From assembly GCA_964623105.1 (NCBI GenBank), contig CAZUUP010000006.1, positions 1 through 30,715 on the forward strand: 30,715 bases of DNA, in the 5' to 3' direction. Made by a program: the position numbers and the translations under genes. The notes under the pieces were generated by a model. It made no database searches. It saw nothing but the letters and a program-made list of their open reading frames with translations, and was not told where the DNA came from. This DNA comes from an uncultured Akkermansia sp. GTDB taxonomy: Bacteria > Verrucomicrobiota > Verrucomicrobiia > Limisphaerales > BJHT01. Below are positions 9,382 to 15,282 of the stretch, one piece after another; the stretch's first letter is position 1, and the number at the start of each line of letters is the position of its first letter.

Positions 9382-9942
9382 ATGTATGGAATGGTGAACA
9401 AAGCAATCGAAGACATGGTTTGCGCCAATCATGGCGAAGCCGTGTGGGAACAGATCAAGGCCGAAGCCGGCGTGGACGTGGATGTCTTCATGAGCAACGA
9501 AGGCTACCCGGACGAGATCACCTACCAGCTCGTCGGCGCCGCCAGCAAAATTCTCAAGCTCCCCGCCGACGCCATCCTCGAGTCCTTCGGCGAACACTGG
9601 GTGCTGCACACCGCGCAGGAAGGCTACGGCGGATTGATGCAGGCCGCCGGCAAATCGCTGCCCGAGTTTCTCGCCAACCTGCCCAACTTCCACTCGCGCG
9701 TGGCGATGATCTTTCCCAAGCTGCAGCCGCCGCGTTTTCAATGCACCGACGTGACCGCCTCGTCGCTCCGGCTCCATTACTTCACCCACCGGCCCGCCCT
9801 GACGCCCTTCGTCGTCGGGTTGATGAAAGGCCTGGGCCGGATGTTTAAGACCCCCGTCTCGGTGCGCCTCGCCGTGCCAAAAGGAGCCGGTGCCGACCAC
9901 GACATCTTCGACGTGACGTGGACGAATGCTCCGGCCGCATGA
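9382..9942 (+). CDS. hnoX: H-NOX (heme NO/O2-binding) protein (186 aa)
   Basis: MYGMVNKAI N-terminus, FGEHW, proximal His104 (NFH), PPRF proline and Y-x-T-x-R (Y133/T135/R137). Closely resembles the Nostoc and sGC-beta1 type H-NOX. Confidence 0.95.
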   Translation: MYGMVNKAIEDMVCANHGEAVWEQIKAEAGVDVDVFMSNEGYPDEITYQLVGAASKILKLPADAILESFGEHWVLHTAQEGYGGLMQAAGKSLPEFLANLPNFHSRVAMIFPKLQPPRFQCTDVTASSLRLHYFTHRPALTPFVVGLMKGLGRMFKTPVSVRLAVPKGAGADHDIFDVTWTNAPAA

Positions 9943-13309: not shown

Positions 13310-15282
13310 AATCGCCTCCGGATTCTCCTCCCACCTCCGCCGGACGTATCTTGGTCGTCGATGACGAGCCCTTCAATCGCGACATCCTCCGCGACGCCCT
13401 CGCCGATCACGGCTACGAAGTGGTCGAGGCCGAGAATGGCGCCGAGGCCATCAAGCAGGTCGCAGCCCACGCCCCCGACGTCATCCTGCTGGACATCATG
13501 ATGCCCGTGATGGACGGCCTCAGCGCCTGTCGCCAGCTCAAGGCCGCTCCCGCCACCGCCGCCATTCCGATCGTCGTCATAACCGCATTGCACGAACGCG
13601 AACCCCGGCTCGAGGCCATCGCCGCGGGAGCGGACGATTACCTCACCAAGCCCGTGGATCTCCCGGAGGTGCTCCTGCGCGTCCGCAACGCCGTCCGCTC
13701 CCGGCGCCTCTATCTCGAACTCCAGGCCAGCTACCAGCGCCTCCAGCAACTCGAGGAACTCCGCGACAACCTCACGCACATGATCGTGCACGACATGCGC
13801 GCGCCGCTCTCCGCCATGATCGGTTTCCTCAACCTCCTCCGCACCGGCGTCGGCCCCCGGCTTTCGCCTCCGGAAAAATCCGCTCTCGACACCGTCACGT
13901 CTTCTGCCAGCCGGCTCGCCGACATGGTCACCACCATGCTCGACGTCAGCCGCCTCGAGTCGGGCGCCATGCCCCTCCACCCCGAATCGTGCGACCTGCG
14001 CGCGGTCGCCGCCGCCGGCCTCGACCCGCTGGGACCGCTGGTGGCCGACCGCCGGATCCTCGTGCTCGCCTCCGGACCTGTCACCGCCCGCTGCGATCGC
14101 GAATTGATCCGCCGCGTCATCTCCAATCTCCTCGGCAACGCCCTCAAGTTCGCACCCCCGAAAACCGACATCCGCATCATCCTCGACCATCGCGCCGACC
14201 GCGTCCGCGTCGAGGTGATCGATGCCGGCCCGGGCATCGCGCCCGAAAATCAGGAAAAGATTTTCTCGAAATTCGGCCAGGTCACCGGCCCGAAGCAGGG
14301 AATGGGCAGCGGGCTTGGCCTCACGTTTTGCAAACTCGCCGTCGAAGCGCACGGCGGCCGCATCGGGGTCAGCAGCGAACCCGGCCGGGGCGCAACCTTC
14401 TGGTTCGAACTCGACTCCGCGCCATCCACTCCAGCCCCGCCTCCCGCGAATGCCCCGCCCTCCCCTCTCGCGCCCACAGCCCCGCCCGCAGCCGACCGGC
14501 CCGCACCCGCTCCTCCGGGCCGCACACTGCGCATCCTCGCCGCCGAAGACGACGATGCGAACCGCCGGCTGACCAAAGTCCTCCTCGAAAGCCTCGGACA
14601 CCACGTCACCGCCGTCGCCGACGGGGCCCAAGCCGTCGCCGCCTGGGCACCGGGAAAATTCGACGCCCTGGTGACCGACTGCGAAATGCCCGCGATGGAC
14701 GGCTTCGAAACGACCCGGCAAATCCGCCAGCGCGAAGCCGCCCTCGGCATCCCCGCCCCGCAGCGCCTCCGCATCCTGGCCGCCACGGCCAATCCCGCTC
14801 CGGACATGCCGCAGCGTTGCCGCGCCGCGGGCATGGACGATTTTCTCGCCAAGCCGCTTACCGCCCAGGGACTGCACCACGCGCTCTCCCAGGCCCCCGG
14901 CCTGCCACCCACCACGCCACCGCGCCCCCCGTGCGACTTCGACCCGCAGCGTCCCGCCCAGCTCTGCGCGGAACTCGGCGCGGAATCGGGCCACATGATC
15001 ATCGGTGATTTCCTCCGCGACCTTCCCGCCGCCCTCGCGGAAATCCGTGCCGCCTTCGTCGCCGGACGCGGCCAGGATCTCGCGCGCCACGCCCATTCAC
15101 TTCAAGGCATCAGCCGTTCCCTCGGCCTCGATGGATTCTCAGAATGTCTGCTGGGTCTCGAACTGGCCGCCGGCCAGAGCGACCTCGCCGCAGCCGTTCC
15201 GCCCCACCTCGAAGCGCTGGCCCTCTCCGCCGAAAAATCCACCGCCGCCCTGTCCGACTGGCTCACGTCCAATCGCCCGTGA
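13306..15282 (+). CDS. Hybrid kinase REC-HisKA-HATPase-REC-HPt (658 aa)
   Basis: VVDDE/LLDIMMP, H-box HDMRAPL, NLLGNALKF, DAGPGI, GSGLGL, a second REC (AEDD/TDCEMP) and HPt AHSLQGISRSLG. Confidence 0.92.
   Translation: MKSPPDSPPTSAGRILVVDDEPFNRDILRDALADHGYEVVEAENGAEAIKQVAAHAPDVILLDIMMPVMDGLSACRQLKAAPATAAIPIVVITALHEREPRLEAIAAGADDYLTKPVDLPEVLLRVRNAVRSRRLYLELQASYQRLQQLEELRDNLTHMIVHDMRAPLSAMIGFLNLLRTGVGPRLSPPEKSALDTVTSSASRLADMVTTMLDVSRLESGAMPLHPESCDLRAVAAAGLDPLGPLVADRRILVLASGPVTARCDRELIRRVISNLLGNALKFAPPKTDIRIILDHRADRVRVEVIDAGPGIAPENQEKIFSKFGQVTGPKQGMGSGLGLTFCKLAVEAHGGRIGVSSEPGRGATFWFELDSAPSTPAPPPANAPPSPLAPTAPPAADRPAPAPPGRTLRILAAEDDDANRRLTKVLLESLGHHVTAVADGAQAVAAWAPGKFDALVTDCEMPAMDGFETTRQIRQREAALGIPAPQRLRILAATANPAPDMPQRCRAAGMDDFLAKPLTAQGLHHALSQAPGLPPTTPPRPPCDFDPQRPAQLCAELGAESGHMIIGDFLRDLPAALAEIRAAFVAGRGQDLARHAHSLQGISRSLGLDGFSECLLGLELAAGQSDLAAAVPPHLEALALSAEKSTAALSDWLTSNRP

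Follow-up and report, generated by a model that had tools for sequence, protein, structure and literature searches.

What does a haem-based gas sensor control when it is built into a polysaccharide locus of bacteria without cyclic di-GMP (c-di-GMP) enzymes? Biofilm control by H-NOX proteins is usually explained through c-di-GMP, and in such bacteria a different route must therefore exist. The question is raised by contig CAZUUP010000006.1 of an uncultured Akkermansia sp. (assembly GCA_964623105.1), all 30,715 nucleotides (30.7 kb) of which were analysed and are referred to as the window; it belongs to a metagenome-assembled genome of 6.26 Mb in 958 contigs that is 99.7% complete. On this one 30-kb piece lie a four-gene relay, consisting of an H-NOX gas sensor, a hybrid histidine kinase (HK1), a stand-alone receiver (REC1) and a second kinase ending in an HPt domain (HK2), together with a partner switch (a STAS protein, an RsbW-GAF-PP2C enzyme and a further stand-alone receiver, REC2), a sigma-54 activator and the biosynthetic enzymes. 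Judged from domains, residues and gene order, it appears on balance probable that the four genes form a multistep phosphorelay which senses nitric oxide (NO), a diatomic gas, and is dedicated to a sigma-54-dependent, exosortase-linked exopolysaccharide locus, with REC2 and the STAS protein as its proposed output.

The sensor pair and its relay

The gene map of the window, built from a frame choice based on third-position GC (GC3) and from Pfam matches (Table 1), bears out the layout described in an earlier note on this DNA: four co-oriented genes joined by ATGA overlaps, the downstream ATG lying on the upstream TGA (at 9939, 12923 and 13306), bordered on either side by genes for GT4 glycosyltransferases (GT4a and GT4b) and encoding neither a c-di-GMP enzyme nor a DNA-binding regulator, as Pfam finds no GGDEF, EAL, HD-GYP or DNA-binding domain in the four products.

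The first product matches HNOB (PF07700) at full length, with 172.5 bits against a cut-off of 25.5 over positions 1-162 of 163, and aligns with structures of Nostoc Alr2278 (PDB 2O09) at E 1e-60 and with the beta1 subunit of soluble guanylate cyclase (sGC) at E 1e-32. Its His104 aligns to His105 of Alr2278, the proximal haem ligand, and is invariant in all of the 80 H-NOX loci that were fetched as relatives of the window H-NOX and served as the locus comparison set. The propionate-binding motif, Y133-x-T135-x-R137, is a conservative variant of Y-x-S-x-R, the middle residue being Ser in 54 and Thr in 25 of the 80 relatives, and the distal pocket is hydrophobic, with Phe143 at a position occupied by Phe in 78 of them. 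Ligand choice in H-NOX proteins is linked to the distal residue, the O2-binding members using a distal Tyr to stabilise O2, and the pocket found here fits a predicted sensor of NO or CO rather than of O2. A role in reporting O2, CO or the redox state in place of NO is very improbable: Nostoc-type H-NOX proteins do bind CO as well as NO, but the hydrophobic pocket lacks the O2-stabilising Tyr, and the nearest solved relatives, Alr2278 and sGC beta1, are NO sensors.

HK1, which the earlier note rightly called a hybrid kinase while overlooking its HNOBA-PAS-GAF-PAS sensor part, reaches 71.5 bits with HNOBA against a cut-off of 23.4; residues 8-121 match the solved H-NOXA domain of a Nostoc punctiforme histidine kinase (PDB 2P04) at E 3.5e-21, and also the PAS/coiled-coil part of sGC. 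Since an HNOBA-bearing kinase moreover lies no more than 120 nt downstream of the H-NOX gene in 75 of the 80 related loci, the link from H-NOX to HK1 is the well-known Nostoc-type pairing. The HNOB/HNOBA pairing has reportedly been known since Iyer, Anantharaman and Aravind described it in 2003; a literature search returned H-NOX and Verrucomicrobia together only in passing mentions.

The remainder of the relay has kept the residues needed for phosphotransfer. Both kinases retain the H-box, N, G1 and G2 motifs, and the His of the HK2 HPt domain, the only HPt in the window, stands in an H-x-x-Q-G context. The five REC domains counted in the earlier note are all present as canonical receivers (the HK1 receiver, REC1, RECa and RECb of HK2, and REC2), each with the acidic pair, acceptor Asp, Thr and Lys in an alignment of all window receivers, and a degenerate one is added to them by the bacterial enhancer-binding protein (bEBP) that forms the sigma-54 activator. 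With these catalytic and acceptor residues kept, the relay is predicted to be competent. NCBIfam offers no equivalog name for HK1, HK2 or the partner-switch enzyme. A chain of binding and phosphotransfer steps can be inferred, in which the stand-alone H-NOX would bind the HNOBA (H-NOXA) domain of HK1, its ligand state would set HK1 autophosphorylation, and phosphate would be handed by the HK1 His to the receiver of the same protein, by this receiver to the terminal HPt of HK2, and by the HPt to a stand-alone receiver. The most alike receivers of the window are REC2 and the N-terminal receiver of HK2 (13306-13725), with 40% identity and an identical 12-residue stretch around alpha3/beta4, and these two may compete for one phosphodonor.

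The slot between GT4a and GT4b

The earlier note regarded the relay as inserted among the glycosyltransferase genes, and a recent lone insertion is not what synteny reveals. In a 300-genome sample of the order, a GT4b orthologue (E<=1e-100) was found in 63 genomes and a window-type H-NOX (E<=1e-30) in 30, the block from GT4b through the priming Bac_transf enzyme to the hexapeptide acyltransferase being conserved in those 63. Eight genomes carry H-NOX and GT4b in the same orientation on a single contig, separated by 2.7-15 kb, and in a ninth GT4b is cut by the contig end; at least nine genomes from eight other families thus have the slot filled by H-NOX and an HNOBA kinase, and the same context recurs in about 19 of the 80 H-NOX loci. 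The closest loci, with protein identities of 58-79%, run bEBP, Wzy, GT4a, H-NOX, kinase, GT4b, Bac_transf, hexapeptide transferase, one or two STAS genes, RsbW/GAF/PP2C, REC2 and phosphodiesterase, and the order bEBP-Wzy-GT4a-HNOX is kept in six loci. Recurring at this position in eight other families, the relay is a conserved element with a fixed place in the locus; in three congeners the entire locus is missing and not the relay alone.

The contents of the slot vary. The block from GT4b to the phosphodiesterase, with its partner switch, is far commoner than H-NOX and occurs without it in about 50 of the 63 genomes, the position upstream of GT4b then holding other HK, REC and HPt genes or nothing recognisable, which suggests exchangeable sensory inputs. 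In two minimal relatives (L022 and L023) the relay consists of H-NOX and a single HNOBA-PAS-HK-REC-HPt kinase, REC2 being the only stand-alone receiver in the locus, and in four more (L057, L059, L066 and L140) the HPt kinase runs directly into GT4b. One locus (L136, G290:C564) has an HNOBA kinase after GT4a, less than 1.2 kb separating the two and no H-NOX match lying in between; the H-NOX match of that genome is on another contig, in a 366-aa open frame, and this arrangement may be a rearrangement or an assembly break.

The relay of the window differs in its make-up from those of the relatives, which have a single kinase with the architecture HNOBA-PAS(-GAF-PAS)-HK-REC-HPt and in some cases an additional HK-REC protein after it. 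Compared with the nearest locus (L021), the identity of HK1 is 61-81% over its sensor part and drops to 44% where HisKA begins. A tree calculated from the kinase cores has several very long branches, and only two well-supported groupings are used from it: the kinases of the relatives' loci form a supported clade (95/96) that does not include the HK1 core, and the HK2 core joins, with support of 100/100, REC-HK proteins of about 390 aa, a family scattered in these genomes. No full-length HK2 orthologue was found in the 300 genomes, the matches covering either residues 7-400 (REC-HK) or residues 132-655 (HK-REC-HPt), and REC1 has no close orthologue in the syntenic loci. Read together, these comparisons indicate that what appears to be an ancestral two-gene relay is rewired here, its transmitter having been replaced, a REC-HK module joined to a REC-HPt tail and an extra receiver added. 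The REC-kinase module of HK2 and REC1 would then be lineage-specific additions that serve as a second input, a gate or a phosphate sink.

This unusual layout is not an assembly chimera, as contigs of an independent study bridge its junctions. The DNA of the window is also present in freshwater and drinking-water metagenomes (two studies), and contigs of the second study, from drinking water, span GT4a/H-NOX/HK1 at 9066-10060, HK1/REC1 at 12157-13176 and HK1/REC1/HK2 at 12800-13976 with about 99% identity. The depth of metagenome contigs is several hundred-fold higher at 11803-12033 than in the rest of the window; this is the HisKA H-box region, which is matched by the kinases of many organisms, and the peak is therefore no copy-number signal.

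The relay is surrounded by the genes listed in Table 1. The FkbM gene has no counterpart at that site in the closest syntenic loci, where STAS directly follows the hexapeptide gene, and several of these loci carry a tandem STAS pair, as against the single STAS gene of the window.

Table 1. Genes and control elements of the window, with the matches on which their assignment is based
Feature	Position	Strand	Basis and remarks
Exosortase operon (GT2, XrtZ-like exosortase, helical protein, sorting substrate)		-	
XrtZ-like exosortase	1157-2602	-	NCBIfam exosortase Z (NF050190), full-length, 450.9 bits, just below 475-bit cut-off; Pfam, partial EpsH only
Sigma-54-type element TGGCAT-N5-CTGC	4508-4522	-	Ahead of exosortase-substrate operon
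bEBP, sigma-54 activator with degenerate receiver	4653-6113	+	Sigma54_activat, E 4e-62
Wzy-like polymerase	6126-7538	+	Pfam
GT4a	7807-9306	+	Pfam
H-NOX haem gas sensor, 186 aa	9382-9942	+	Pfam HNOB, E 9e-51
HK1, hybrid kinase HNOBA-PAS-GAF-PAS-HisKA-HATPase-REC, 995 aa	9939-12926	+	Pfam HNOBA, two PAS, GAF, HisKA, HATPase_c, Response_reg
REC1, stand-alone receiver, 128 aa, lineage-specific	12923-13309	+	Pfam Response_reg, E 2e-27
HK2, REC-HisKA-HATPase-REC-HPt, 658 aa, chimeric	13306-15282	+	Pfam two Response_reg, HisKA, HATPase_c, Hpt
Sigma-54 promoter, perfect TGGCAC-N5-TTGCA	15418-15433	+	36 nt before GT4b start; only zero-mismatch match in window
GT4b	15470-16669	+	Pfam
Bac_transf priming phosphoglycosyl transferase, 250 aa	16724-17476	+	Pfam; NCBIfam EPS_sugtrans, 272 bits
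Hexapeptide acyltransferase	Between Bac_transf and FkbM genes (GT4b-to-hexapeptide block 15470-18305)	+	Pfam
FkbM-type methyltransferase	18352-19230	+	Between hexapeptide transferase and STAS
STAS, anti-sigma-antagonist-like, 100 aa, DSSG phospho-serine motif	19379-19681	+	Pfam STAS, E 1e-14
RsbW-like Ser kinase-GAF-PP2C (SpoIIE) fusion	19688-21475	+	Pfam HATPase_c_2, GAF_3, SpoIIE
REC2, stand-alone receiver	21468-21839	+	Canonical residues; overlaps PP2C gene by 8 nt
Phosphodiesterase-family protein, Wzx, further glycosyltransferases	Downstream of REC2	+	

Possible routes of output: c-di-GMP, sigma-54 and the partner switch

An output through c-di-GMP, which the earlier note had already doubted, is effectively excluded as far as gene content can tell. 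No GGDEF and no EAL domain was found in the whole genome, and no HD-GYP domain in the operon, the genome-wide search having covered GGDEF and EAL only; GGDEF is likewise missing from five relatives that carry the locus and from the three congeners. The search itself works in this order, for it detects GGDEF, at 1-3 copies each, in 26 of 101 near-complete genomes; most members of the order appear to be without c-di-GMP synthesis. The doubt expressed in the earlier note finds its firmest backing in these absences, and as the locus-bearing relatives also lack GGDEF, the conclusion holds even if the contig is mis-binned. In the H-NOX systems that do signal through c-di-GMP (HnoK-HnoB/D, HaCE), the sensor acts with a GGDEF, EAL or HD-GYP partner, none of which was found here within the same limits (GGDEF and EAL genome-wide, HD-GYP in the operon), and c-di-GMP would accordingly have no part in the proposed circuit.

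A second candidate is the bEBP. Its AAA+ sigma-54 domain is intact, with GAFTGA and Walker A present. In the receiver alignment its N-terminus has neither the acidic pair nor the acceptor Asp, the Thr/Ser or the Lys; even a threshold of E<=10 yields no Pfam receiver match, and its alignment with the NtrC1 receiver is confined to the part from alpha4/beta5 onward, with Thr replacing Lys. With no phospho-acceptor residue left, the bEBP cannot take up phosphate directly from the relay, as the earlier note had supposed it might. The note's wider expectation, that the output goes to local components, is plausible in view of the slot shared with eight other families, and it is only the bEBP as phosphate acceptor that has to be removed from it.

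The locus is nevertheless tied to sigma-54. The promoter ahead of GT4b has counterparts of the same type in the five closest loci, and among all 61 loci only the closest bEBP-bearing ones have it; besides the element ahead of the exosortase-substrate operon there is a weaker sigma-54-type element ahead of the operon starting at 22078, and rpoN is present in the genome. Repeated TTGCA/TGCAA half-sites adjoin the sigma-54-type promoters at 4600-4652 and 22010-22080 and are candidate bEBP enhancer sites. A sigma-54 promoter before the H-NOX gene was considered and rejected, the only match being a GG-N11-GC string of wrong spacing that is not conserved in relatives.

These promoters, the linkage of the bEBP to Wzy-GT4a-HNOX in the closest relatives and the conservation of the pseudo-receiver, which is 68-77% identical over its full length in relatives, speak for a relay that reaches transcription via the bEBP, much as SypF acts on SypG in Vibrio fischeri, by contact with phosphorylated REC1 or REC2 or with STAS and not by phosphorylation of the bEBP. 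Such a contact is conjectural, direct phosphorylation being excluded by the lost residues, and loci without H-NOX have no such bEBP within 9 kb and yet keep the partner switch; this route is accordingly judged quite unlikely.

There remains the partner switch, on which the preferred reading of a dedicated phosphorelay relies. REC2 is the most economical endpoint, since it is the only free receiver in the loci of the minimal relatives, the bEBP cannot accept phosphate and c-di-GMP enzymes are absent. It is 66-78% identical in syntenic loci and is present in 18 of the 22 loci with RsbW-GAF-PP2C, a protein in which the metal-binding Asp motifs of the PP2C domain are present. REC2, as the likeliest endpoint and translationally coupled to RsbW-GAF-PP2C, would set the balance of kinase and phosphatase activity on STAS, and STAS would gate polysaccharide production post-transcriptionally, either via the priming Bac_transf enzyme or via the bEBP pseudo-receiver. 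Bac_transf itself has no STAS domain, the STAS protein being encoded separately two genes downstream.

A bolder version of this proposal, offered only tentatively and considered unlikely, is that NO acts through H-NOX and is hard-wired through HPt and REC2 onto a STAS switch that directly gates the priming phosphoglycosyl transferase, the bEBP pseudo-receiver or both, in Verrucomicrobiota free of c-di-GMP. If true, it would constitute a post-translational NO-to-slime switch that reveals what kind of target SypA-like STAS proteins have, which has long been sought, and the genes in the slot ahead of GT4b would form a sensor cassette that can be exchanged.

Several observations weigh against a dedicated local output. 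REC2 does not discriminate between loci by H-NOX, being present in 6 of 6 loci with H-NOX and in 12 of 16 without it (all of them with RsbW-GAF-PP2C); most loci of this type that lack H-NOX still have REC2 and the partner switch, and REC2 must therefore have other donors elsewhere. Some 60 of the 80 loci with H-NOX and an HNOBA kinase lie in other contexts, five further HPt proteins are encoded elsewhere in the genome, and the transmitter of the window is not orthologous to that of the relatives, so that partner specificity may have changed. A promoter scan of the relay genes was unsuccessful, the search for sigma-70 promoters giving nothing and terminator-like sites occurring at chance level; the relay may be read through from the upstream bEBP-Wzy-GT4a genes. 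The contig has a GC content of 0.673, which is 2.2 standard deviations above the genome mean of 0.638 (standard deviation 0.016, contigs of at least 10 kb), its tetranucleotide profile being unremarkable (correlation 0.962, the 48th lowest of 179). The three congeners have no H-NOX and no GT4b orthologue (best match 32%), and, unlike these genomes of the same genus, other families carry the locus at about 75% identity. The whole locus may thus be mobile between lineages and laterally acquired, or the contig may be mis-binned.

Part of this evidence would also be explained if the relay lay in the locus only for co-expression and its real output were one or more regulators encoded elsewhere, for instance in motility, stress or NO detoxification. 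Most H-NOX/HNOBA-kinase pairs of the subfamily are found outside polysaccharide loci, the core block from GT4b to REC2 mostly does without H-NOX, and the additional HPt proteins and the swapped transmitter point in the same direction. This explanation is nonetheless judged rather doubtful, as it sits poorly with the identical position in eight other families, tightly packed between glycosyltransferase genes, with the HPt kinase that directly abuts GT4b in minimal relatives, and with the V. fischeri precedent of an H-NOX kinase feeding a polysaccharide relay.

The proposed circuit among known systems

The preferred circuit, from H-NOX through the relay to REC2 and STAS, has counterparts in several bacteria. 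The sensor pair resembles that of Nostoc (the H-NOX Alr2278 and the H-NOXA kinase of N. punctiforme) in that the two genes are adjacent and both domains match; it differs in belonging to another phylum, in having Y-x-T-x-R instead of Y-x-S-x-R, and in feeding a relay that is spread over three more genes, has had its transmitter swapped and lies inside a sigma-54/exosortase polysaccharide locus. In Pseudomonas aeruginosa, the NosP-NahK-HptB-HsbR-HsbA pathway leads from an NO-responsive hybrid kinase to an HPt protein, a receiver-controlled PP2C/RsbW-kinase and a STAS protein, and affects biofilm. The same succession of NO-responsive hybrid kinase, HPt, receiver, PP2C/RsbW-kinase enzyme and STAS is proposed here; the sensor NosP, however, is not an H-NOX protein, the HPt is a separate protein and the receiver of HsbR is fused, and the output of that pathway to a diguanylate cyclase and FlgM has no counterpart in the window.

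A closer parallel is provided by V. fischeri, whose system the earlier note omitted in summarising established H-NOX signalling as running to biofilm through HnoK/HahK kinases or c-di-GMP enzymes; HahK was named, but not its c-di-GMP-independent pathway, in which HnoX and HahK act through the HPt of SypF and LuxU on SypG and on SypE/SypA of the syp polysaccharide locus (PMC12369376). Both systems comprise an H-NOX-controlled hybrid kinase, an HPt relay, a sigma-54 bEBP, a STAS protein with a putative phosphorylatable Ser (DSSG here), an enzyme with RsbW-kinase and PP2C domains, and an in-locus kinase with REC and HPt (here HK2) within a glycosyltransferase-rich locus. The differences are that here the locus itself contains the genes for H-NOX and its kinases and that the kinase has an sGC-like HNOBA-PAS-GAF-PAS sensor; that SypG has a receiver which is phosphorylated, whereas the bEBP receiver is degenerate and hence not of the SypG type; that SypE combines an RsbW-like kinase, a central REC and PP2C, whereas the window has HATPase_c_2-GAF-SpoIIE, the receiver REC2 being a separate downstream gene; and that the locus includes an exosortase (XrtZ-like) module in a host without GGDEF/EAL enzymes.

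For the last step, the nearest model is Anabaena PCC 7120, where HenR (REC-SpoIIE) and Alr3423 (an RsbW-type kinase) toggle the STAS domain of All4160, a STAS-Bac_transf fusion, in the control of envelope polysaccharide (PMC13555669). STAS, the RsbW/PP2C enzyme, a receiver (REC2) and Bac_transf likewise share a conserved block here; in contrast to Anabaena, a single protein carries kinase and phosphatase on either side of a GAF domain, and the receiver is a separate protein. Because STAS and Bac_transf are fused in All4160 and are separate neighbours in the window, Bac_transf is, by analogy, a candidate target of STAS. With the target of SypA in V. fischeri still unknown, the two-gene minimal relatives offer a compact test system for STAS control of polysaccharide synthesis, and the window itself documents the rewiring of a relay at the level of domains, with a swapped transmitter and a chimeric REC-HK-REC-HPt protein, inside an otherwise conserved locus.

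Measured against these systems, each part is of a known kind, and the circuit logic that they would share is already proven in V. fischeri. New are the absence of c-di-GMP enzymes from the hosts, the bEBP with its pseudo-receiver, the exchange of REC for GAF in a SypE-like enzyme whose receiver has become detached, and the lineage-specific, chimeric four-gene relay.

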